Positions 3,234 through 15,804 of a stretch of 64,000 bases of DNA are shown one piece after another (positions within the stretch are counted from its first letter, which is position 1; each line of letters starts with the position of its first letter). The position numbers and the translations under genes were made by a program. The notes under the pieces are model-generated. The model was given only the letters and a program-made list of their open reading frames with translations, ran no database searches and had not been told where the DNA came from. Source of the stretch: Methanobacteriota archaeon (GTDB taxonomy: Archaea; Thermoplasmatota; Poseidoniia; Poseidoniales; Thalassarchaeaceae); contig JAERST010000013.1 in assembly GCA_016845365.1 (NCBI GenBank), positions 44,090-108,089 on the forward strand, written 5' to 3'.

Positions 3234-3950
3234 TCAGTGAGACCCGAGGAAGTATTCCCCAATTTCAGGGTCGGTCAGAATGTGTTGAGCATCACTCGTG
3301 TGAACCACCTTCCCGCTCGCCAAAATGTAGCCACGGTCAGAGCGAGCAAGGCTCAACCGAGCGTTCTGCTCGACGATTAAAACAGTAATTCCCTCCTCAC
3401 GCAGAGCATCAATCCGCTCGATGATTTGTTGCTGATATAGCGGAGACAGCGCCGCTGTTGGCTCATCTAAAAGCAAGAAAGTCGGATTGGAAATGAGCGC
3501 CCTCGAAATCGCCAACATCTGGCGCTCACCACCAGAAAGTGAAGCAGCCAAATCGTGGGTGCGATCGCGCAAATCTGGGAACATCTTCAGAGCGCGCTCG
3601 ATGCGCTCATTCAGCACCTTAGTAGGCAATTTATTGCCACCCATCTGCAAATTTTCGTGCACAGTCAGCGAAGGGAAGACATTGTTCACCTGCGGAACGT
3701 AAGCGATGCCGCGGTTGACCAATTGGTCGGTTCGCCAGCCGGAGACGTCGTCCCCATCGTGCTCAACGGTTCCCGAGTAGTGGGTGGCGATGCCGAAAAT
3801 CGTCTTGATGAAAGTGGATTTTCCGCAGCCGTTCGGGCCGATGATTGTCACGAATTCGCCCTTGTCGACGTAGAGGTCGATATCGTAGAGAATCTGCACA
3901 GAGCCGTAGCCGCCGTTCAATCCCTTGACCTCGAGGATGCGCTCGCTCAT
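3234..3950 (-). CDS. livF: branched-chain amino acid ABC transporter ATPase, LivF type
   Basis: GPNGCGKST, LSGGERQMLA, LLDEP, VEQNA. Confidence 0.93.
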   Translation of the reverse strand: MSERILEVKGLNGGYGSVQILYDIDLYVDKGEFVTIIGPNGCGKSTFIKTIFGIATHYSGTVEHDGDDVSGWRTDQLVNRGIAYVPQVNNVFPSLTVHENLQMGGNKLPTKVLNERIERALKMFPDLRDRTHDLAASLSGGERQMLAISRALISNPTFLLLDEPTAALSPLYQQQIIERIDALREEGITVLIVEQNARLSLARSDRGYILASGKVVHTSDAQHILTDPEIGEYFLGSH

Positions 3951-4756
3951 TCCTCCTCGCCCCCTTCGCCTTGGGCCTCGCCCTCATCGCCAGCCGCGCC
4001 CAGATAGGCCTCGATGACAGCACGATTGCTGCGAACCTCGTCCGGAGTGCCGACCATGAGGATTTCACCCTCGTTCATGACGACGATTCGGTCGACTCCT
4101 TGTCGAAGAATGAAATCCATATTGTGTTCGATAATCAGAACCGAAATGCCCGTCTCATCGACAATCTTTCGAAGATTGTTGAATATCTTCATCGCCAGCG
4201 GACCGGCTACACCCGCAACCGGCTCATCGAGAAGCAGAAGTTGCGGGTCACCCATCATCGAGCGGCCGATGTCAACGAGTTTCGACTGGCCACCAGAGAG
4301 TTCGCTGGCGAGATTGTGCGCCATGTGCGGAACTTCGAGCTGGTCCAGAACCTCGTAAGCACGTGCCAATCGGTCTTGCTCGGCGGGTCGAGAAAATGGT
4401 TGCAGAATCGCCTGTAGCGGATTCGGTTTGAATTGCTCGCGAGGCGGCACCAAGAGATTCTCGATGACCGTCATCTGCCGCCAGAGCCGAGTGTGCTGGA
4501 AAGTGCGTGTAAAGCCGAGATTCTGAATCTCGTCCGGCCGCATATCAGATGCATCCTCTCCGAAGACTTCGACACTTCCAGAGGTCTGCTGCAGCAATCC
4601 ACTGATGCAATTGAAAGTGGTTGATTTGCCGCATCCGTTCGGCCCGATCAAACCTACGAATTCACCCGGGCCGACCTCAAAAGAGACATCCTTTACAGCG
4701 ACCAGCCCACCGAATTCCTTGCGAAGATTCTGAATCTTCAACACAGGTTCACTCAT
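3947..4756 (-). CDS. livG: branched-chain amino acid ABC transporter ATPase, LivG type
   Basis: FGGLVAV, GPNGCGKST, RTFQ, LSGGQ, LLLLDEP, IEHNM, C-terminal VIEAYLG. ATG 4756 overlaps the permease stop. Confidence 0.93.
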   Translation of the reverse strand: MSEPVLKIQNLRKEFGGLVAVKDVSFEVGPGEFVGLIGPNGCGKSTTFNCISGLLQQTSGSVEVFGEDASDMRPDEIQNLGFTRTFQHTRLWRQMTVIENLLVPPREQFKPNPLQAILQPFSRPAEQDRLARAYEVLDQLEVPHMAHNLASELSGGQSKLVDIGRSMMGDPQLLLLDEPVAGVAGPLAMKIFNNLRKIVDETGISVLIIEHNMDFILRQGVDRIVVMNEGEILMVGTPDEVRSNRAVIEAYLGAAGDEGEAQGEGGEEE

Positions 4757-7700
4757 TCGAATCACCTCCGGATGTCGAGTCCGACCGGGTAGGCCGGCTC
4801 GGAACTTCTGGCATCAAGCCCTTCGGATTGAACTTGAGAGAGAATAGAATCAGACAGCCGATTAGGAAGACCTTGACGTAGGCCATATCGGCTTGGAGTC
4901 CACCGATGAAAGCCTCGTCAATTGAGCGTTGGCCCATCATCAAGCCGGTGAAAGTGAAGGTGACAGCACCGGCTAATCCCACTTCTCTGAGCCCTGCCTT
5001 CCCGATTAACCAACCGAGTAAGCACAGAATGATGCAGAGGTTGACCACTTCCCACGAGTCGACAACTAGCCACTCAAACAGGCTATCGATACGCGCGGCC
5101 GTCGTGTGCAAGGGTAAGTCTGCAGAACCTTGGCCGGCGACTAGAACGTTGAAGACGAATTCCATCAGTACGATGATGAAGGCGCCGACGACCATTCCTC
5201 GGTTATTCGCGGCTCCACCAACGATGAAAGCAGCCCAAACGAGGAATGTCGACCTTGCTGGCATCATATGGTTGGGCTGGAATCCTGTAAGCTTCCAAGC
5301 CCAGAGTGCCCCTGCGAAGGCGGCGATTGCCGCGCCGAGAGCGAGGCTCGCCGCCTTGTGAGTCAAGACATCGTGTCCGTGGTGTTGAGCGACTTCTTCG
5401 TCCTCGCGGATGGCTCGCAGAATGCGACCCCATGGTGAGGCGAGCACCGTGTCGAGAAGCCACCAAATCAGAACGGTTGCGACGATTCCGATTATGGCTA
5501 GCAGGAGCATGTAAGGAGCTGGCTCACCCAAATTCAGCAAGTCGCCAACCGAAGCCGCGGGACTTGACAAATCCACTACATCGCGGCAATCTGCCGGTTC
5601 CATCTTCGAGATGATATCATCCGCAGTCCCCAAAGTGGCATCCGGTCCAGCCAAAGGCGCCTTATTCGGAACATCGGAACCGCAGAACCACCATGATTCA
5701 CCCGGCAGAGTATACCGTGAGATTCCAATCGAGGAACCCCAAGAACCAGCGCGTAGCAAGGGTTCACCAGCAAGCAATACGCGTACGATTTCACCGAGTG
5801 AAATCGTCACGATTGCGAAGTAATCCATCCGCAATCGAGCGGTTGGATAAGCCAGCAGCCAGCCGGCGAGAGCGGCGATGAGGACAGCCGCTATCGTCGC
5901 CGGAATCACGGGCCAATCGTAGCCGTGTAATTCAGAGGGAGCGCTCAGAATCCCCACGACGATTGACCCGATACCAACAAAGAATATCACACCAAAATTC
6001 ACCATTCCCGTGACACCGGTGTGGAGGTTTAGTGAGAAGGCCATGAGGGCGAAAATAGCCAGTGTGACCAGCACGTTTGAGACTTGTAGGACCTTGATGA
6101 AGCGCATTCCATCCTGTTCTGCGACCGGCAACCAAGCCAAGAATAACAGCAAAATGAACATCATTACACTGAACATAATCCACGAGCCCTTCGGACTCTC
6201 ACGCCCGTACAATGCAAGGTGATCTGTGCCGCTAGACTCCGGTCGAACTCGCGAAATCAATGGAGAAATCTGCTCTGAAATTTGCACAGTGAATCCATCG
6301 ATCTGCGCAGAGACCCTCGTTGGAATTGTGTTGAGTTTGACAGCGAGTTGATTCAAGGAAGTCGAGAGATTTCCAAAGCCCGGGCTCGCGCTCGCTGTTA
6401 CGTCTTCAATCATCGAAGTTATTCGGCGAAGTGGGTCTTCATCACGCCCCTTCAGCAGATTGATTCCCTCGACAATTGCGATGAGCCACACCAAGATTGG
6501 TAATGCTGGCCAAATCACATCTCCGAGGGTGCCAATGATATCGAGTAAGGCCAGCTCGCTTGACATCAAGTCAAACCAAGTCTGATTCATGAAATCGAGA
6601 TGTTCTGCCGTCCAGCTCTCGTGCAGATATGGGGCTACGTCGCTGGGCGGCGAATCGATATTCGATTCTGTGAACGGGGCATCGGCCAGAGTGAGTGAGC
6701 CATCGCTTCTGCCCGTAACCAATTCGAGATTGGTTGCGATGCCTTCTGAGTCTTGGCAGGTTTGCGAGCAGGCGCCCTCAGAGAATGAGTTCGCGCCGAT
6801 GAATTGTGAGATTCTGTGGAATACGTAAGCACCAATCGTCGCTATCAGCATCGATTGACCACGAGCCTCTTTGCGCTGCTGGAAATTGTGTAGACCCAAT
6901 GCACCGGTTGGCAGAATCGCAAGGATTCCTCCTGTCTTCTTGTTCGGTGCCCGGTCTTGCTCAGCGCGTTTTCTGAGTCGGTCGACCTTCCATTTCTCAT
7001 AGGCATCGCCGATTCCCTCGGGCATAATCATCAGGATAGCGATGAGGAAAATGTAGGGCATTACTCCGTCGAGTGCTGTGTAATTTGAGCGCCCGAGTGG
7101 TTGTCCTATACCGATTAGGACGGGGGATGAAAGGGCGCGAACAAAACCGACGATTAGCGAGCCGATTATCGCTCCGGGAATTGAGCCAATGGTTCCGAGG
7201 ACGATTACTGCGAACGATGGAAGAAGGAGTGTGAAGGCCGTTTCAGGCGTGAAGCGGAGCGTCATCGCGAAGATGGCCCCACCCATCCCAGAAAGGCCGG
7301 CCGAGAGGAAGGCGCTGGTCATTTGCACCCTCTCGACGTTGATACCGCTGGATGCGGCAAGGTCTGGGTTGTCGGCAACAGCGCGCATGCGGCGGCCGAG
7401 GCGAGTCTTGTTGAGGAGAATCAGAAGGAGAATTACCGAGATGAAGATCACAACCGGCATGGCACCCTTGTAGTAGGCATAGCCGGTTGTGGCTTGGTCG
7501 ACACAATTTGTCGCCAAATCATAGGTCTCGAAGAGTGGTTTGCTTCCTTCGACGACAATCCTCTCGCCGCCCTCAGCATCGCAAGAATTCAGAGTATAGG
7601 TCGAGCCTTCCTCGATACTGCGGTCGCCGAGGTAGAGGCGAAGTTTGGTTGTTGGAATGTCCCACCGCAGGGAAGGTACGCGCCAATCTGCATCTGGCTC

Positions 7701-8474
7701 GAACATATTCTTGCCTGCACCAAATCGAAGGTAGACGAGTGCGCGCAAAATCAGTGCCACACCCAGCGATGCGATCATCATCACCTGAGGTGAAGCATCG
7801 CGCTCGCGGAATCCGCGATAGACCAAACGATCGATGACAATGCCAGCGATTCCAGTCAGTACAAAGGCGCCTAAGACTGTCCACAAGAGGAGAGACCAGA
7901 CGATTACACCGTCTCTAGGAGCAGCGGCAAGTGGGTAGAAATGATCTACCCAAACCATCACCATTGCCAAATACATACCAATCATGAAGAATTCAGATTG
8001 GGCAAAATTTCCGTAACGCTGGACCTTGTAGGTCAGGGTTAATCCGACGGCTATCGCAAGATATGTCGTCGACCAAGTTAGCGTTCCGACTCCAACCGAT
8101 ACTAGGTCGAGGGTAATGATTGCATCATCGGCCATTCCCTTGAACAAGAGGTCCAAGGTTAACCAGACAATGAATAAGAGAAAAAGTGGAGAACAAGCGA
8201 TTCCGATAGAACGGGCGGTGCTTTCTGGGACATCATCGAAGAGGATTTTGATCAGCATAAATCCGCCTGAGATAGCCACGACGGTTTGCAATAACCATAC
8301 CATATCATTCGGAATTCCTCCCCCGAGGATAGCGTCACTGTGATTGAGTAGACCGAAGCCGTATCTCAAGCCCAGCCAAGCATCGAAGATGATGATTAGC
8401 GAAATCACCAGGCGCTGGCGGCCACGGTCAAGGGATTTCCAGCCGGAAGTCACAGATTCAATCATCTGGCACAC
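4749..8474 (-). CDS. fused LivH-LivM ABC permease (1241 aa) with extra TM segments and a TM2-like insert
   Basis: LivH half: AVGLTLTY..NFAQSEF, TRLGRRMRAVADNPDLAASSGIN, VIVLGTIGSIPGAIIG. LivM half: SLNLHTGVTGMVNFG, RLRMDYFAIVTISLGEI, SPWGRILRAIREDE, PKGLMPE. Confidence 0.9.
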   Translation of the reverse strand: MCQMIESVTSGWKSLDRGRQRLVISLIIIFDAWLGLRYGFGLLNHSDAILGGGIPNDMVWLLQTVVAISGGFMLIKILFDDVPESTARSIGIACSPLFLLFIVWLTLDLLFKGMADDAIITLDLVSVGVGTLTWSTTYLAIAVGLTLTYKVQRYGNFAQSEFFMIGMYLAMVMVWVDHFYPLAAAPRDGVIVWSLLLWTVLGAFVLTGIAGIVIDRLVYRGFRERDASPQVMMIASLGVALILRALVYLRFGAGKNMFEPDADWRVPSLRWDIPTTKLRLYLGDRSIEEGSTYTLNSCDAEGGERIVVEGSKPLFETYDLATNCVDQATTGYAYYKGAMPVVIFISVILLLILLNKTRLGRRMRAVADNPDLAASSGINVERVQMTSAFLSAGLSGMGGAIFAMTLRFTPETAFTLLLPSFAVIVLGTIGSIPGAIIGSLIVGFVRALSSPVLIGIGQPLGRSNYTALDGVMPYIFLIAILMIMPEGIGDAYEKWKVDRLRKRAEQDRAPNKKTGGILAILPTGALGLHNFQQRKEARGQSMLIATIGAYVFHRISQFIGANSFSEGACSQTCQDSEGIATNLELVTGRSDGSLTLADAPFTESNIDSPPSDVAPYLHESWTAEHLDFMNQTWFDLMSSELALLDIIGTLGDVIWPALPILVWLIAIVEGINLLKGRDEDPLRRITSMIEDVTASASPGFGNLSTSLNQLAVKLNTIPTRVSAQIDGFTVQISEQISPLISRVRPESSGTDHLALYGRESPKGSWIMFSVMMFILLLFLAWLPVAEQDGMRFIKVLQVSNVLVTLAIFALMAFSLNLHTGVTGMVNFGVIFFVGIGSIVVGILSAPSELHGYDWPVIPATIAAVLIAALAGWLLAYPTARLRMDYFAIVTISLGEIVRVLLAGEPLLRAGSWGSSIGISRYTLPGESWWFCGSDVPNKAPLAGPDATLGTADDIISKMEPADCRDVVDLSSPAASVGDLLNLGEPAPYMLLLAIIGIVATVLIWWLLDTVLASPWGRILRAIREDEEVAQHHGHDVLTHKAASLALGAAIAAFAGALWAWKLTGFQPNHMMPARSTFLVWAAFIVGGAANNRGMVVGAFIIVLMEFVFNVLVAGQGSADLPLHTTAARIDSLFEWLVVDSWEVVNLCIILCLLGWLIGKAGLREVGLAGAVTFTFTGLMMGQRSIDEAFIGGLQADMAYVKVFLIGCLILFSLKFNPKGLMPEVPSRPTRSDSTSGGDSNE

Positions 8475-8592: not shown

Positions 8593-11500
8593 TCACGCGT
8601 TCGTTACGCCGCCGTCGCGTGACCAGAAGCGGTCACAATCGAACGACACGGCACCATCATCGGCGACGTTGAACGTACCGACGCAGTATCCGTTACCAGC
8701 GACATCACCAACAGCATCGAAGCTGTGGACACCAGAGGCGCCCACGAAGCCTTGACCTACAGCCGAGATGAGAGCGCTCAGAGGGGTTCCCTCTGGGCTC
8801 GAAGCCAATGCGAACACCGAGTAACCGATGATGATCATGGCGTCGAATGCCTCTGCGGTGTAGATTCCACCAGCGCAGTCAGGCACAGCGCCGCAAGCCG
8901 CGGCGAATGCCATCGAGCGCTCGTTTGGTGTTGCTGATGCTGGCTTGGTAGCCACCGCACCGTCTAGCAGAGAACTGTCTGCCATGTCGGCTGCGATTCC
9001 TTCCTCAGCGACTCCGTCGCCACCGTAGATAGCTCCGGAGAAGCCCTGAGCACCGAGTTCCTCGATGATTGCGGCTCCATCACTCGCGTACGAGATCAGC
9101 ATGACGCTGTCGCAGCCACCGTCGACAACAGACTGCACCTGTGAGGTGAAGTCAGTCTCGGTGTCTGCGTATCCGACCTTCGTGCAAAGTGCGTTACCTG
9201 CATCTGTCCAAGCAGCCTCGAAGGAGTCTGCAAGACCAGAACCGTAGTCGTTGGTCATGTAGAGCAGTGCAATGTTGCTGTGGCCACCGGCGGTGACAAC
9301 ATCAGCGAGTGCAGGTCCCTGAATCGCATCGCTTGGCACGACACGGAAGAACAGCGGGTATGCCGAGGCATCGCTGAGTCCAGGGTTAGTGCTCGCGTAC
9401 GAAATCATTGGGATTCCAGCAGCCGATAGGACTGCGTTTGCACCCATGGTTGCACCAGAGCAGGCTGCTCCAGCAACTGCGACTACACCGGCGTCGATCA
9501 GAGTCTGAGCGCCGGTAGCAGCGACGGTTCCGTCACAGCCCGAGTCAGCGAATACCAACTCGAACTGTAGGCCTGAGCCCCATCCTGCAACGTTCATCAT
9601 CTGAAGAGCGATTCCTGCAGCAGCTGCGAATCCTGGCGCGTAAACAGCGATAGGACCGGTTGCTGGATTTAGGAATCCGATCTTGACCGTCTGGCCGGTG
9701 AAATCGCTTGCAGCGACTCCACCGTCACGGGTCCAGTGTGCTCGGCAGCTGAAGAAGACATCAGTGCTCGACAGAGCGTCGAAGCGGCAGATATCGTATC
9801 CTGCTCCTGCGACGTCTCCGCTCTCATCGAAAGTGTGAGATCCGGATGCGCCTTCGTAGTCGGTTCCGACCATGCCAAGGTGGGAAGCCATGTTAGCTCC
9901 CTCTTCCATCATTGCAGCCTTACCGATCATCATGACCGCATCGTAAGTCTCTGCAGTGTAGATTCCACCAGCACAGGTCTCGTCAGCAGCGCAGCGCTCA
10001 CCGAAGTCACCAGCACCGGCTACGGCGCGTGGCTTGGTGGCCTGGACGCCGTTTGCAGCACCAGGTGCGCTGAAGTCGTCGAGGAAGCCGGCGTCAGCGA
10101 TTCCATCCGCGCCGAATGTTGGCAAGGATAGGCCGACGTAGGCCATTGTCTCGAGGATTGCAGCACCGTCGGTTGCGTAGGTGACCATCACGACGGAGCC
10201 ACAGCCCGCGTCAGCGATTGCTTGGACCTCAGCAGCGAAGTCGGTCTGAGTGTCCTCGTAACCGATCTTTGTGCAAAGGTTGTCCGATCCCCATGCGCCC
10301 TCAAAGGCGTCTGCTAGACCAGAACCGTAGTCGTTGGTCATGTGCAGAAGTGCCGGGTTTGATGCACCAGCTGCTGTTACCATTGCGGCGATTGCAGGAC
10401 CCTGGATTGCGTCGCTTGGAACGACGCGATAGAAGCCTGGGTAAGCCGAGGCGTCAGAGAGACCAGGGTTTGTGCTGGCGTATGATACCTGCACGATTCC
10501 AGCCTCGCTGAGGACAGCGTTTGCACCCATTGAGGCACCAGAGCACGCGGCTCCAGCGACACCGACAACGCCGGCGTCAACAAGGGTCTGTGCGGCTCCG
10601 CTTGCGACGGTTCCGTCACAGCCGGAGTCTGCCTCGACGAGTTCGAAGTCGCCGCCCATTGCGTTCAGGTCAGCGATTGCCATGTTGGCAGCTGCTGTGA
10701 ACGGTGGTGCGTAAACTGCGATTGGTCCAGTCAATGGATTTAGTAGACCGATCTTCATCGACTCTACTGGCTCTTCTGGAGCCTCAAACATTGGGTTATC
10801 GTTACCCATGTAGTGAGCAGCGATCTCATCGACGAGCGCGTTAGCGACGTCGACATCGAATCCGACAGCGTTACCATCTTCGTCAATGCTCTCGAACGGC
10901 GGGTAAGCCGTGTCCGAGCAGAGCTTGAGCGAACCGGACTCGAGAACCGCTGAGAGGGTTGATCCCTCGCTCGGGCTCGGGTAAGCGGTTGCAGTGTTGT
11001 CGTCGCGGTCATCTGTTAGGACAACAGCGCCATCGAACCAAGCACCGAAGATAGCGTCGTACTCGCCGGAGTCGACAATCGCGGTGATTGCGACGTTGAG
11101 GGCATCGAGCAATTCGCCCGAGTCCTCGCGGACAGCGAGTCCGAAGGTCTCATCCGAAAATGTCGTCAATAGGTCACCGGACAATGCCAGCACGGGCGAA
11201 TCGCCCATAGCGTAGTCCGCCTCACCATTTCCAACAGCCGCTACGACCGAGGGGAAGTCAGCGTATGCGACGATTGTCGCGTCACCGAGGTTATCCTGGG
11301 CGTAGAGATCGGAGGTCGTTCCGGATTGAACAGCGACGGTTGTACCAGCCGCATTCAGTTCCGAGACGTCCGAGATAGCTGCAGCACCAGCCGCACCGAT
11401 TACACCCTGGCTACTCGTGTAGTAACCGCGGGTGAAGTCGACGACTTGGTCGCGCTCCTCCGTCTTCGTCATCGCCGAGATGATGGCATCGCACATCTCG

Positions 11501-11694
11501 CCGCCGTTCAAGTTGGGAATAATCGGATCCCAATCAGACGTAACAAAGTCTGCCGACACATCGTCGGCTGGACTCAGTTCCCACGTCTCTTCAGGTTCCA
11601 CTTCCCCGCCCAGACATCCTGCGAACGCAGCCGCAAGCATGCTGAGCGTCATCAGCATTGCAGTCATTTTCTTGTCTAACATGGCGTATCTCAC
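8593..11694 (-). CDS. three-domain solute-binding lipoprotein: circularly permuted family-3 (polar amino acid) domain plus two LIV-type domains
   Basis: Lipobox AFAGC. Family-3 motifs DWDPIIP, DAIISAMTKTEER, GTTS, YPPFE, GFDVD. Two repeats of KIGxLNPxTGPIAVY...DSGCD...GAACSG...SYASTNPGLSD...RVVPSDAIQG. ATG 11682 is an alternative start. Confidence 0.92.
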   Translation of the reverse strand: MRYAMLDKKMTAMLMTLSMLAAAFAGCLGGEVEPEETWELSPADDVSADFVTSDWDPIIPNLNGGEMCDAIISAMTKTEERDQVVDFTRGYYTSSQGVIGAAGAAAISDVSELNAAGTTVAVQSGTTSDLYAQDNLGDATIVAYADFPSVVAAVGNGEADYAMGDSPVLALSGDLLTTFSDETFGLAVREDSGELLDALNVAITAIVDSGEYDAIFGAWFDGAVVLTDDRDDNTATAYPSPSEGSTLSAVLESGSLKLCSDTAYPPFESIDEDGNAVGFDVDVANALVDEIAAHYMGNDNPMFEAPEEPVESMKIGLLNPLTGPIAVYAPPFTAAANMAIADLNAMGGDFELVEADSGCDGTVASGAAQTLVDAGVVGVAGAACSGASMGANAVLSEAGIVQVSYASTNPGLSDASAYPGFYRVVPSDAIQGPAIAAMVTAAGASNPALLHMTNDYGSGLADAFEGAWGSDNLCTKIGYEDTQTDFAAEVQAIADAGCGSVVMVTYATDGAAILETMAYVGLSLPTFGADGIADAGFLDDFSAPGAANGVQATKPRAVAGAGDFGERCAADETCAGGIYTAETYDAVMMIGKAAMMEEGANMASHLGMVGTDYEGASGSHTFDESGDVAGAGYDICRFDALSSTDVFFSCRAHWTRDGGVAASDFTGQTVKIGFLNPATGPIAVYAPGFAAAAGIALQMMNVAGWGSGLQFELVFADSGCDGTVAATGAQTLIDAGVVAVAGAACSGATMGANAVLSAAGIPMISYASTNPGLSDASAYPLFFRVVPSDAIQGPALADVVTAGGHSNIALLYMTNDYGSGLADSFEAAWTDAGNALCTKVGYADTETDFTSQVQSVVDGGCDSVMLISYASDGAAIIEELGAQGFSGAIYGGDGVAEEGIAADMADSSLLDGAVATKPASATPNERSMAFAAACGAVPDCAGGIYTAEAFDAMIIIGYSVFALASSPEGTPLSALISAVGQGFVGASGVHSFDAVGDVAGNGYCVGTFNVADDGAVSFDCDRFWSRDGGVTNA

Positions 11695-12038
11695 GCTCCT
11701 TAGCCCTCGTACGACATTTCCTATTTGTTATAGAAGTTCGCAATATTGTTCCAGAAAACACCGTTTCGGTATGTTGGTGAAATGGAATCCTGAATGATTG
11801 GAAACTGAGGTAATGCGCGGATATGATTCCCTTTTGTGATAATTTTCTTCCATATTTCTACAAATTCTAGAAAATGGCGCATCGGAAATTCCCCACGAAG
11901 TGGATTTTTTAGAAATCCGAATTTTTCGTGAGTTTTGAGAAGGGGGCCTCAAACTCTTTGCTAGTTTTTTTCTGAGTTTGAGCAGCCGATTGAATCATGA
12001 AGTTGGCCCTGCGCGTTCGGTGCGTGGCAGACACCCCC

Positions 12039-13142
12039 ATGGACTATGCCAGCAGCGGGGTCGACATCGATGCCGAGGGAGCTGCGATTGCCAGTCTAAT
12101 CGGTTCGTTGAGCGGCTCGGTCCGACAGCCTGGGACGAGGGGAGCTCCGATTCCTCTTCCCGGGGGCTTTGGTGGTATCATCGAATTCGGTGATTCACGC
12201 TTGGCTCTGGCGACCGATGGTGTGGGTTCAAAATTACAACTTGCTAATTCTCTCGGTCGCTACGAGGGGGTCGGCATCGATTGTGTCGCAATGAATGTCA
12301 ACGACTTGCTCTGTGTAGGTGCCGAACCACTCGCCTTCGTAGATTACATCGCCGTGCCTGCAACCGACCCAGCGACTCATGCCGTCATCGGCTCATCGCT
12401 TGCTGAGGCTAGCCGACGCGCGCGAATTACTTTGGCCGGCGGCGAGACTGCAACCCTTCCAGGTATTGTTACCGAACTGGATTTGTCCGGTACCGCACTT
12501 GGTTGGTTTCCAGCAGGTGGAGCGATTACGGGTGAGAGGTTAGAGGCCGGTGATGTGGTCATCGGTTTGCCGAGTAGCGGCGTCCACTCAAATGGCTACA
12601 CTTTGCTCCGAGCAGTGGTTGAGAAATCAGGACTCTCGCTGACCGACGCGGCACCATTCGATTCGGAGCACGCCGGGCGAGTGATTGAGGGGGCGGGTGA
12701 AGCAGGTGCGAGCCTTGGCGAGGTTTTGTTGAACCCGACTCGAATTTATGTTGACCCAATTATCGATTTGATCGATGCTTGCCGCGACGGATCGGGCCCT
12801 TGTGCGAGCGAGGATTTGAAGGCGATTGCTCACATTACAGGTGGAGGTTTGTCGAACCTACTCCGACTTCACGACTCGCTCGGTTGGCACATCTCAGACC
12901 CCTTGCCGGTTCCGCCTGAATTCGGTTGGATAGCAGAGGTTGGCCCTGTCGAGAATCTCGAGATGCACAAGGTCTTCAATATGGGAATGGGGATGTGTCT
13001 CGCCGTATCTGAGGATGTTGTTGATTCTGTCGAAGAATGGCTTGCTGCGAGGCTGTCGGGCAGTCGACGAGTGGGTGTTGTGACCGATGAAGGACATCGG
13101 GTAACCCATGCTGATTCCGATGTTGTGTTCGAACATTATTGA
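12039..13142 (+). CDS. purM: phosphoribosylformylglycinamidine cyclo-ligase (AIR synthetase)
   Basis: MDYASSGVDI, GGFGG, TDGVGSK, DCVAMNVND, GGETA, SSGVHSNGY, HITGGG, FNMGMG. Confidence 0.96.
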   Translation: MDYASSGVDIDAEGAAIASLIGSLSGSVRQPGTRGAPIPLPGGFGGIIEFGDSRLALATDGVGSKLQLANSLGRYEGVGIDCVAMNVNDLLCVGAEPLAFVDYIAVPATDPATHAVIGSSLAEASRRARITLAGGETATLPGIVTELDLSGTALGWFPAGGAITGERLEAGDVVIGLPSSGVHSNGYTLLRAVVEKSGLSLTDAAPFDSEHAGRVIEGAGEAGASLGEVLLNPTRIYVDPIIDLIDACRDGSGPCASEDLKAIAHITGGGLSNLLRLHDSLGWHISDPLPVPPEFGWIAEVGPVENLEMHKVFNMGMGMCLAVSEDVVDSVEEWLAARLSGSRRVGVVTDEGHRVTHADSDVVFEHY

Positions 13143-13214
13143 GACTCATTTCGTGAGTACTCACCATTCTGTCCGAGCAGTCAAGCCAATGTGTGAGGGC
13201 TCATCCGAGGCGAC

Positions 13215-14543
13215 GTGACATCTCCAACTCCGCGCGGTTGGCCCGGCCTTGTCCACAGAGAGGGAAGGACGCTTACTCGCGTGACGAAATTGCCGGAATC
13301 CACCGCTCGAGGACCGGCGGCAAAGAGTGCCGATGGAGTGTTTCTGAATCCGGCGATGGCAGGCTCGCGCACGCGGAGCGTGCTGTTGATGGCGCATGCC
13401 ATCGAGTCTGGAATACTCGGTGATGGGAAAATTCGCGCCCTCGATGGATTGAGTGCGTCTGGGTTGAGGCCCCGGCGTTGGTTGCGCGAATTGCCCGAAG
13501 ACGCCGCCGCGCGATTGATTGCGACCGCGGGTGACATGGATCAGAATTCCTTGGACTGGGGGGCGGCGACCGAGGCTGAATTTCCTAGTGGCCGCGGAGA
13601 ATTGCACTCACTTCTCGGTGACCTTCGCACCAGCGTCCTCTCCCAAGGTTGGCACTGGATCGACATCGACCCCTTCGGCTCGCCGGTTCCATTCCTCGAC
13701 ACGGCAGTCCAAGCTTTGGCACGCCGTGGTGTTCTCGAGGTCAGCGCAACCGATACAGCCGCACTTACCGGCTCTTCGAAGAATCCCTTGATGCGCCGTT
13801 ACGGGGCCAGAGTGCGGCTGGACAAACTCAAACACGATTCAGGGCTTAGAGTTCTGATGGCAACGGTCGCGCGCGCGGCTGCGCGCCACGACCGGAGCAT
13901 CACGCCCCTGCTCTCAATTTGGGATTCGCACCACCTACGAGTCTCGGTTCAGGTACGTCGAGTCATGGGTGGTGCGAATGATATCGAGGCATCGCTCGGC
14001 TGGCGAGTTTTCTCGCCAGACCAGTCCGAGGTCGATGCTTCGGTTGCGGCAGGTCTGCTCCCGGCTGACTCCGGAAGCGACCTGCCAATCCGTTGTTTCC
14101 TACCTCTTTCTCACCCCGTCGCCCGCGGCGATAAGCGGGTGTCCGGGCCGATGTGGATCGGCCCGCTCGGCGATGCGGATACGATGGCTTCGATGAGCCA
14201 AGAGCGCGCACTCGAATTGTGTGGACCGGCGGCTGGAGAAGCCGAAGACCCTGCGTGTTGGAGCGAGAAGCAATTTGAAGCCGAGCGAAGACGAGTTGCA
14301 CGCGCCGTCAGAAACATCGCAGAAGAATCTCAAGCCATCGACGCAGCCCATCTGATCGCCGTCGATGAACTATCCAGTTGGCTGGAAAGAGGCAGCCCCC
14401 CAAGCCCAGCCAAGATGGTTGCCCACCTCCAAAAACAAGGCCACTGCGCGGCAGTCTCACACTATGCAGAACCCTCGTTCAGCACCGACGCGCCGTGGTC
14501 AGCAATCCTCGCCGCCTTCGATGAAATCACGGCAGGCGAGTAA
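13215..14543 (+). CDS. trm1: tRNA (guanine26-N2)-dimethyltransferase
   Basis: VFLNPAM..SR, LDGLSASGLR, IDIDPFGSP, SATDTAAL, GPMWIGPL. Confidence 0.85.
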   Translation: MTSPTPRGWPGLVHREGRTLTRVTKLPESTARGPAAKSADGVFLNPAMAGSRTRSVLLMAHAIESGILGDGKIRALDGLSASGLRPRRWLRELPEDAAARLIATAGDMDQNSLDWGAATEAEFPSGRGELHSLLGDLRTSVLSQGWHWIDIDPFGSPVPFLDTAVQALARRGVLEVSATDTAALTGSSKNPLMRRYGARVRLDKLKHDSGLRVLMATVARAAARHDRSITPLLSIWDSHHLRVSVQVRRVMGGANDIEASLGWRVFSPDQSEVDASVAAGLLPADSGSDLPIRCFLPLSHPVARGDKRVSGPMWIGPLGDADTMASMSQERALELCGPAAGEAEDPACWSEKQFEAERRRVARAVRNIAEESQAIDAAHLIAVDELSSWLERGSPPSPAKMVAHLQKQGHCAAVSHYAEPSFSTDAPWSAILAAFDEITAGE

Positions 14544-14546
14544 AAC

Positions 14547-15563
14547 TCAACCGCCGATATACGACATTTCAATCCGCGGAAGCGCAGAAGCAGAAGTCTC
14601 CTCGGAACGGAGTTCGGAATATCGGTCGGCGCGACGCTCCCAGATAGCAGCAATTGCAGCGGTCAAATTTCCACCATTCGCGCCATTTTGAATCAGCGCA
14701 CGTAAATCGTGCCCACCAGAAGCGAAGAGGCAAGTGAAGAATCTGCCATCTGCAGAAATACGCGCGCGAACGCAATCTCCACAGAAAGGCGCGCTAACAG
14801 AAGAAATCAGGCCGATCTCGCCCGACCCATCGGAATGGCCCCACCTCACTGCAACATCGGAGGCGCGCTCGGCCGCGAGCGGAATCAAATCGAATTCACC
14901 ACGAAGATGCTCGAGTAAATCCCCGCTCGCCACAACCTCACCCAAAGTCCAGCCATTGGTCCGGCCCACGTCCATGTATTCGATGAAGCGGACGGTGACG
15001 TCGGTGCCGCGGAAGTGGCGTACGAGTTTTGCCGCCTGTTCTTCGTTGACCCCCCTGCGAATAACGCAATTCACCTTCACCGGAGCTAAACCCGCCTCCA
15101 GTGCAGCGTCTATTCCATCGAGGATTGTTTCGACGGGGATATCGGTATCGCTCATCGCCCGGTGGACATCATCGTCGAGGGCATCCAGACTTACTGTGAC
15201 CCTCGTCAAACCGGCGGCTGCGAGGGCGGCTGCGTTGCGGCGGAGCAGCGAGCCGTTAGTTGTCAATGCGAGCTCGATTTCGAGGTCTGATAGGCGTTTG
15301 ACTAAGTCGGCGAGGTCAGGACGGAGTAGAGGTTCGCCGCCGGTCAGTCTAACTTTTTCGAGGCCGAGTGGGATGCTCGCGCGGACGACTTTTTCGATTT
15401 CGTCGAAGGAGAGGAAGGCGCGGCGCGGAAGGAAAGTGTGCTCCTCGCCGAAGCGCTCGCGCGGCATGCAGTAAGGGCAGCGGAAGTTGCAGCGGTCGGT
15501 GACTGAAATTCGCAAGTCCTTGAGTTGTCTTCCGAGTCGGTCGGTGACCTGCTCGGACGTCAT
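14547..15563 (-). CDS. moaA: GTP 3',8-cyclase (molybdenum cofactor radical SAM enzyme)
   Basis: LRISVTDRCNFRCPYC, RLTGGEP, RFIEYM, FCGDC..R..ADG..TCLF, C-terminal MSYIGG. Start set at ATG 15563 because the longer ORF only reads through the 17-bp repeats. Confidence 0.95.
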   Translation of the reverse strand: MTSEQVTDRLGRQLKDLRISVTDRCNFRCPYCMPRERFGEEHTFLPRRAFLSFDEIEKVVRASIPLGLEKVRLTGGEPLLRPDLADLVKRLSDLEIELALTTNGSLLRRNAAALAAAGLTRVTVSLDALDDDVHRAMSDTDIPVETILDGIDAALEAGLAPVKVNCVIRRGVNEEQAAKLVRHFRGTDVTVRFIEYMDVGRTNGWTLGEVVASGDLLEHLRGEFDLIPLAAERASDVAVRWGHSDGSGEIGLISSVSAPFCGDCVRARISADGRFFTCLFASGGHDLRALIQNGANGGNLTAAIAAIWERRADRYSELRSEETSASALPRIEMSYIGG

Positions 15564-15590
15564 GGTCGCTTGGTGTGTGCGATGAGTCAA

Positions 15591-15675
15591 AGGCTTGGTG
15601 ATGTCGAAGGCTTGCTGTTGTCGAAGGCTTGCTGATGCCAAATGCTTGCTGATGTCGAAGGCTTGGTGATGTGGG
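15591..15675. repeat. degenerate 17-bp tandem repeat, 5 copies, in the moaA/nfuA divergent intergenic region
   Basis: aggcttggtgatgtcga / aggcttgctgttgtcga / aggcttgctgatgccaa / atgcttgctgatgtcga / aggcttggtgatgtggg. Confidence 0.9.
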
Positions 15676-15804
15676 TTTGGTGATTGATGACTCAAGATTT
15701 GAGTGGCTGAGTCCGGGATTTGTTTGGCGGATCACTTTCACTTTCTGCTCAGCCCACTCGCCCGCAGGTTGAAGACGGGTGGGCTTGTGAACGGGGTGAG
15801 AGCC

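Follow-up and report, generated by a model that had tools for sequence, protein, structure and literature searches.

A probable natural circular permutant of an amino-acid-binding domain in a three-module lipoprotein of Marine Group IIb archaea

The gene considered here encodes a three-module binding lipoprotein and lies on the reverse strand of contig JAERST010000013.1 from a Thalassarchaeaceae archaeon (order Poseidoniales), within a stretch of 64,000 nucleotides which was analysed as a whole and is called the window below. The protein belongs to Marine Group IIb (MGIIb) archaea and joins a domain of the SBP_bac_3 family (PF00497) to two binding domains of the LIV type, and the gene is followed by those for a fused LivH/LivM-type permease and two ATP-binding cassette (ABC) ATPases, one of which has the branched-chain C-terminal motif in Pfam (Table 1). 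Within the fused permease, some 300 residues between the two BPD_transp_2 domains (roughly residues 480–790) have no Pfam match. Modules 2 and 3 and the downstream operon belong with LivJ/LivK and LivHMGF of the HAAT family, while the first module does not. It is this first module, residues 46–293, which on the alignments and structure model presented here is very probably a genuine, folded, ligand-binding circular permutant.

The ATG at 11680–11682 (residue 5) is the likely translation start, giving 1029 amino acids, since the matching record of the protein collection has that length. The lipobox cysteine, Cys27, is kept in 127 of 129 aligned homologues. From the signal peptide and lipobox, the domain would share the extracytoplasmic site of GlnH/HisJ/ArtJ-type proteins and would hang from its lipid anchor on the cell surface.

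Table 1. Features of the lipoprotein gene and its operon (window positions). aa, amino acids; HMM, hidden Markov model; ORF, open reading frame; PDB, Protein Data Bank; pLDDT, predicted local distance difference test.
Feature	Positions	Strand	Basis
Whole gene, three-module binding lipoprotein, 1033 aa from GTG	8593–11694	-	ORF, Pfam
Signal peptide and lipobox (AGC); codon of lipidated Cys27 at 11614–11616	11614–11682	-	read from the sequence, without a signal-peptide predictor
Acidic tether from lipid anchor to domain, aa 28–45	11560–11613	-	low pLDDT in the model's first block
Segment 1, aa 46–100: starts at canonical second strand of lobe 1; SAMTKTEER binding motif; Cys68 (11491–11493)	11395–11559	-	HMM, PDB alignment
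Segment 2, aa 101–186: lobe 2 with QSGTT and GDSPV motifs	11137–11394	-	HMM, PDB alignment
Segment 3, aa 187–221: return to lobe 1, canonical C-terminal helices, last residues WF	11032–11136	-	HMM, PDB alignment
20-aa linker, aa 222–241, old C-terminus to old N-terminus; motif VVLTDD..NTAT.YP common to types B and C	10972–11031	-	HMM coordinates, model pLDDT 89–98
Segment N, aa 242–293: canonical first strand, YPPFE loop, first helix (GFDVD); Cys259 (10918–10920)	10816–10971	-	HMM, model, conservation
Spacer, aa 294–312, new C-terminus of the domain to first LIV-type domain	10759–10815	-	Pfam
LIV-type binding domain 1 (Peripla_BP_6 / ANF_receptor), about aa 313–640	9775–10758	-	Pfam
LIV-type binding domain 2 (Peripla_BP_6), about aa 669–1033	8596–9690	-	Pfam
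Fused LivH/LivM-type permease, 1241 aa, two BPD_transp_2 domains	4749–8474	-	Pfam
Two ABC ATPases: LivG-like (3947–4765) and LivF-like (3234–3950)	3234–4765	-	Pfam

A sequence-only reading of the window had proposed that the domain begins, after the lipobox, at a segment which is normally internal, that its new termini lie just past the GFDVD helix and that the new C-terminus leads into the LIV domains; it had expected two PF00497 hits in swapped order, and these are found. The Pfam model scores 92.5 bits against a gathering cut-off of 26.4 and matches in two stretches, with model positions 38–131 on residues 46–221 (11032–11559 in the genome scan) and positions 1–37 on residues 256–292 (10819–10929), downstream in the protein. 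By phmmer against PDB chains, residues 46–220 correspond to residues 62–245 of AncCDT-1 (5t0w) and residues 244–292 to its residues 13–61, the break thus falling exactly between residues 61 and 62 of the canonical numbering. A canonical HMM of 265 positions, built from 28 canonical-order relatives, gives two exactly complementary hits, residues 45–221 matching its positions 80–261 and residues 242–292 its positions 30–80. A single collinear SBP_bac_3 match was returned by none of the three (Pfam, the canonical HMM, phmmer against the PDB), and residue 46 falls at the canonical second strand in both the HMM and PDB alignments. A rotated order, complementary segments and a linker between the old termini, the general marks of a circular permutant, are therefore all present. 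The linker had been put at about 25 acidic residues; it exists, but its length by HMM coordinates is 20, the larger figure including a few flanking residues. The motifs and both cysteines stand where they had been placed, and the first LIV-type domain does follow the new C-terminus, from about residue 313 in Pfam.

The current Pfam SBP_bac_3 model has 132 positions and appears to cover lobe 1 only, because a protein that lacks lobe 2 (P0168) matches it over nearly its whole length; lobe 2 was checked instead with the 265-position HMM and the PDB alignments. P0168 and P0176 each hold an SBP_bac_3 domain without lobe 2 (order N-1-3), embedded between low-density lipoprotein (LDL)-receptor class A and EF-hand modules.

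Structure prediction, which the earlier reading had suggested, yields one confident domain. The AlphaFold2 model of residues 28–310, made with a 45-row alignment, has a mean pLDDT of 93.7 and a predicted template modelling score (pTM) of 0.89, the relocated strand and helix reaching at least 95 and the linker 89–98. Foldseek aligns the model with 5t0w over 179 columns (root-mean-square deviation (rmsd) 1.6, 35% identity, E 1.4e-15), a span without the relocated piece as the program aligns in sequence order. A two-lobed alpha/beta fold is thus predicted by the one and matched by the other. Residues 46–293 would form a complete two-lobed amino-acid-binding domain of type II (cluster F, SBP_bac_3) with its chain order rotated. 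The chain would pass from the canonical second strand of lobe 1 through lobe 2 to the canonical C-terminal helices, then by way of the conserved 20-residue linker to the strand, loop and helix of the canonical N-terminus; these would complete lobe 1 before the chain enters the two LivJ/K-like domains. As both hinge crossovers would be retained, the usual Venus-flytrap closure on an alpha-amino acid is expected. Of the 47 columns conserved at 75% or more among 43 canonical proteins, the domain (P0001) retains 39, and with them all six invariant columns, including the Arg of T..ER. The family residues of the binding cleft are retained (Arg of T..ER, SxT, GTT, Asp of GD.P and YPPFE), and presumably have the ligand-contact roles of their counterparts in the solved LAO, HisJ and GlnBP structures.

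Certain features of this evidence count against a permuted domain that binds ligand. All of the structural evidence is prediction, ligand binding is read from the fold and conserved residues, and residues 242–293 are placed in lobe 1 by the confidence of the model and its secondary structure rather than by a measured superposition. Circular permutation, with the termini moved to a point between the first helix (GFDVD) and the second strand and the C-terminus now leading into the LIV-type domains, is nonetheless supported by the swapped, complementary HMM hits, the confident single-domain model and an order conserved in homologues.

The last of these is extensive, and bears out the expectation that homologues would share the order. 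The protein collection contains 535 homologues at E ≤ 0.001, of which the best 120 are 71–100% identical and all carry PF00497, PF01094 and PF13458; those with names are Candidatus Poseidoniales or Thalassarchaeaceae. In the alignment of 129 homologues, conservation is 90% or higher at the YPPFE/GFD motif positions of the relocated piece. The domain occurs in 64 of 201 sampled genomes of the order, all of one family and concentrated in six genera; by family, it was found in 63 of 99 genomes of the window's own, in none of 99 of the other large family and in neither of the two of a third. This family-limited spread fits the distribution of livK-type receptors, which two studies give as present in MGIIb, not in MGIIa, and among the most transcribed genes there (PMC9723583, PMC6336850). 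Marine RNA libraries had word shares of 0.05–0.07, and four runs gave contigs 85–95% identical, hence from relatives and not from this strain; they show the junction bridged by a contig, say nothing on expression level, and are uninformative in the parts they leave uncovered.

Three other explanations of the swapped order were weighed. In three-dimensional domain swapping, the relocated segment would complete lobe 1 of a neighbouring molecule, making the protein a dimer or a chain; the same sequence constraints would then be satisfied, and permuted and tandem forms do coexist in the clade described below, but the monomer model keeps the segment in its own chain with the high pLDDT and pTM given above, and the linker is confidently modelled and held to 18–20 residues in all 18 aligned rows of this break point (type A below), which leaves swapping very improbable. 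Slimmer still is the chance that the domain is a defective remnant of a tandem pair, copy 1 having lost its N-terminal 50 residues and the first 50 of copy 2 persisting as a vestigial spacer. Tandem SBP_bac_3 proteins align collinearly to the query, and such a pair is also the probable evolutionary route; yet the two HMM hits are exactly complementary, the model integrates the relocated piece, and a vestige would not remain invariant over six genera or keep its YPPFE and GFD motifs at that level across the 129 homologues. An assembly or gene-calling artefact has next to no probability, as the same order recurs in 535 proteins from independent assemblies and in 64 genomes, and an RNA-library contig of a relative (85–95% identical) spans segment 3, the linker and segment N at 10787–11130. 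Chance or misassembly is excluded by the E-values together with the order conserved in the 535 homologues.

Cys68 and Cys259 are the only cysteines of the domain besides that of the lipobox, and occupy columns 102 and 47 of the canonical HMM, respectively. Cys68 is present in 128 of 129 homologues (one gap) and Cys259 in all 129. Column 47 is Gly in 36 of 43 canonical proteins, and column 102 is a bulky hydrophobic residue in the aligned solved relatives. Both cysteines occur in all 18 type A rows and again in P0238 and P0202 (canonical order), P0265 (type D) and P0133, and across 233 other domain fragments the two columns hold both cysteines in 11, one in 12 and neither in 210; the pair is thus conserved and co-varying. 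Lobe 1 has its first and third strands side by side in the established topology, and therefore a disulfide between Cys68 and Cys259 is plausible, its formation being somewhat favoured over free thiols on these alignments. In the type A order, such a bond would plausibly tie the two ends of the domain together. The proposal of a disulfide staple joining the two parts accordingly stands in part: the pair is kept in the homologues and recurs as a pair, but it is not specific to the permutation. As it is also found in the canonical-order P0238, P0202 and P0133, the pair is, by sequence, a recurrent feature of the family and not a staple invented for the permuted form. Type C proteins of Marine Group III (L023, P0139 and relatives) have a cysteine pair of their own in the region of the first helix (G-N-C-V-G-F-D-C-D), at positions which differ from those of the type A pair.

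The break point of this gene is one of several in the family, going by segment order in its relatives. Searching 1.84 billion representatives with HMMER yielded 8471 hits, and the best 150, typed by segment order and then by canonical-HMM coordinates, contain five break points besides the canonical order, in a sample biased by the query itself being permuted. Type A, that of the present gene, runs from HMM positions 80–261 to 30–80 and is found in Thalassarchaeaceae. Type B (about 229–262, then 30–233) is found in Asgard archaea, and type C (about 137–150 to 262, then 30 to about 140) in Marine Group III, Asgard archaea and Actinomycetota; type D (208–262, then 33–207) is represented by P0183 and P0265, and type E (164–264, then 33–168) by P0243. 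In types B and C the break falls at a hinge crossover, and the names of their sources include Candidatus Kariarchaeaceae and Heimdallarchaeota. The archaeal proteins of these two types possess both a signal peptide and a C-terminal membrane anchor, and are therefore regarded as complete. A scan of species-representative genomes with a 6-sequence alignment recovered 80 loci. These comprise 38 of type A (Thalassarchaeaceae and other Poseidoniales labels) plus one 5'-truncated copy, eight full and one partial of type C in Poseidoniia labelled MGIII, one of type B in Heimdallarchaeota, 17 of type C in lipoproteins of Actinomycetota/Coriobacteriia, 13 of canonical order and one unclear.

The type C protein P0139 likewise gives a confident predicted model, with pLDDT 89–98 in its domain blocks. 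Foldseek of that model against the PDB found no good collinear match, the best being the tandem 6h30 at rmsd 20, and PDB sequence searches returned no solved permuted member among the best 60 of 89 matches to type A or the best 60 of 85 to bacterial type C, these being canonical or tandem only. In one locus of Coriobacteriia (L071), a canonical SBP_bac_3 gene and a type C paralogue lie side by side (4737–5648 and 5782–6714), upstream of one permease-ATPase pair.

For phylogeny, the protein fragments were placed in canonical HMM columns and trees were built with IQ-TREE (LG+G4, 104 rows, 233 columns), support being given as ultrafast bootstrap / SH-aLRT. Types A, B and archaeal C, with the canonical-order P0133, form one clade of 38 rows (98/94), and the next branch outward consists of canonical-order Heimdall/Hodarchaeota proteins (99/92). 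P0133 joins type A with full support (100/100), grouping with two type A rows (96/95). An independent character agrees with this clade, namely a junction of 18–22 residues with one motif in all 34 rows of types A, B and C. The strict junction pattern is met in 25 of these 34 rows and in none of 61 others, while the core T-A-T-x-aromatic-P is seen by eye in nearly all 34. P0133 carries halves of the motif on both flanks of its canonical domain, and P0130 is a tandem of two type C units, 82% identical, which groups with the type C protein P0140. P0133 and P0126 are both large proteins that resemble each other in the N-terminal region and have LDL-receptor class A modules as well as a C-terminal anchor; the former has canonical order and the latter type A.

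Since one linker is common to the archaeal clade, in which three rotated frames occur beside a tandem form and a member of canonical order, the simplest reading is that its permutations arose by duplication with truncation, repeated several times from tandem forms. Other results temper this. The number of terminus shifts inside the clade is uncertain; a single clade for type B, or for archaeal type C, appears in 0 of 200 bootstrap trees each, but the approximately unbiased (AU) tests are weak, monophyly being borderline rejected for type B (p-AU 0.049) and not rejected for archaeal type C (0.077). P0133, moreover, is one sequence without genomic context. Outside the archaea, the bacterial type C clade has a different junction of 11–13 residues and, in the tree, falls within canonical proteins of bacteria. 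The AU tests reject its union with the archaeal clade (p-AU 3e-44) and likewise one origin for all permuted forms (p 4e-4). The lipoproteins of Actinomycetota, to judge from tree and junction, were permuted independently; types D and E are also nested among canonical sequences, and the tree implies at least five origins of permutation in this sample.

The nearest canonical proteins are GlnH, HisJ/LAO and ArtJ (type II, cluster F), with AncCDT-1 (5t0w) as the best solved match. The fold is the same two-lobed one with 39 of 47 family columns shared, whereas here the chain is rotated, continues into two type I LIV domains and has an importer of LivHMGF type, not of PAAT type, encoded next to it. 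GlnPQ, with SBD1-SBD2 (6h30), has two SBP_bac_3 domains in one chain, and the permuted query is collinear with it across the domain junction; it is the kind of precursor needed for permutation by duplication, although each of its domains has canonical order and the pair is fused to the permease. Among the binding proteins of transporters, natural permutation has been described twice, as far as the accessible literature goes, one case being of type I (TpMglB-2) and one of type II (the betaine/molybdate/CysB group). TpMglB-2 (Tp0684) of Treponema pallidum, classed as 'Type Ic / Cluster Bc', is described as a natural circular permutant, a membrane-tethered binding protein of an ABC transporter with the strands of its N-lobe relocated to the C-terminus, which binds ligand with conformational change (PMC4990184). 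It differs from the present domain in being a type I, sugar-binding protein with a fourth hinge crossover added and only 13% identity of the moved part to the canonical N-terminus (PMC4990184); in the archaeal domain, homology of the moved part is clear and the number of hinge crossovers is unchanged. Inside the type II fold, CPSARST related OpuAC/ProX, molybdate-binding proteins and CysB by circular permutation (PMC2395249). Those are separate families of less than 24% identity, found by structure only, and the text available for them does not describe a shared linker, intermediates or a series of break points within one clade (PMC2395249). A natural permutation in polar-amino-acid-binding proteins was not found described in the literature available, supplements excluded, and the main text of the CIRPIN survey makes no mention of such binding proteins, though its supplements may list some (PMC13552848).

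The importer served by the permuted module is a separate question. For the two LIV domains the partner would be the adjacent LivHMGF-type importer; for the permuted module, delivery in trans to a polar-amino-acid (PAAT-type) ABC importer, encoded elsewhere and without a binding-protein gene of its own, is tentatively put forward. It is judged the most likely of the readings, because relatives in the clade adjoin an orthologous importer which in this genome stands without a binding-protein gene. A homologous permease of about 600 residues, with an N-terminal BNR/Ycf48-like domain and BPD_transp_1, adjoins the gene in seven of nine archaeal type C loci and in the sole type B locus, and an ABC ATPase comes next in the three loci scanned with Pfam; downstream of bacterial type C genes lie a BPD_transp_1 permease and an ATPase. 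In the window's genome the orthologous pair of permease and ATPase is on another contig, with 61% identity in the membrane part. It lies between the genes for SAICAR synthase and glutamate dehydrogenase, with 41 bases in front and no binding-protein gene. At that spot, in the same synteny, a sister genus has a 331-residue stand-alone type C gene (L108:4763-5758, genome G149). The invariant Arg is gone from this copy, the only one inspected, along with many other conserved residues, and the protein may bind something else, or nothing. Stand-alone copies were found in three genera of the family (8 of 9, 4 of 9 and 3 of 10 genomes), which makes 15 of its 101 genomes, while the nine other genomes of the window's genus, and two further genera, gave none. 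Domain and permease occur together in 63 of 201 genomes, the domain alone in one, the permease alone in four and neither in 133.

The PAAT-type permease itself (L107:6240-8294, contig 11 of genome G000; also L024, L028, L039 and L108) has an N-terminal domain of about 400 residues matching PSII_BNR, a Ycf48-like beta-propeller. This addition is an unusual extracytoplasmic part for an ABC permease, and is conserved from Heimdallarchaeota to Marine Groups II and III.

Several observations speak against delivery in trans. The gene lies in a LivHMGF-type operon, with BPD_transp_2 and LivG/F neighbours, and no BPD_transp_1 (PAAT-type) permease and ATPase are encoded alongside it at this locus. The co-occurrence is confounded by descent, domain and permease sharing the same six genera, so that it represents one or few events and not 63; in one genome (G117) the domain is present and no permease reaches E ≤ 1e-40, and a second SBP_bac_3 gene is present in the window's genome, on contig 11 near other permeases. 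Complex prediction, run with the domain and the membrane part of the PAAT permease in two copies, gave no answer (score 0.05) and speaks neither way. The same operon structure is what would favour delivery to the neighbouring LivHM permease, all three modules then serving one importer, for the domain shares a polypeptide with two LIV-type domains and an operon with the fused LivH/M permease and LivG/F. That arrangement, the main alternative, is nevertheless unlikely, given that every other clade member with its context inspected adjoins a BPD_transp_1 (PAAT-type) permease and that the orthologous PAAT importer without a binding-protein gene is present in the genome; moreover, no type II cluster F protein is known to serve a BPD_transp_2 permease. 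Delivery may also be to both importers, or to neither.

Taking transport and origin together, one lipoprotein might feed two unrelated ABC importers, its LIV modules the LivHMGF system and its permuted module, in trans, the PAAT importer, which would have lost its own binding-protein gene in this genus, while the archaeal clade would be a living series of permutation by duplication, with tandem, three rotated frames, a return to canonical order and one linker; in this joint form the proposal is rather doubtful. Binding proteins of the type II fold are textbook models of ligand-induced closure and common biosensor scaffolds, and have been permuted by engineers. Nature offers at least five break points in one such family, three of them sharing a linker in one clade with tandem and canonical-order forms, which would make the archaeal clade a rare natural record of permutation by duplication. 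Types B and C, which would leave a single connection between the lobes, could serve to test ideas on hinge requirements, and the ligand and importer partner of the present module bear on amino-acid uptake in the surface ocean.

The remaining surroundings of the gene are ordinary. Upstream lie an AIR-synthase-related protein, a Trm1-type tRNA methyltransferase and one further ORF (11997–14543 on the forward strand, 14547–15695 on the reverse), and an MCM gene, which marks the DNA as archaeal, stands at the start of the window.

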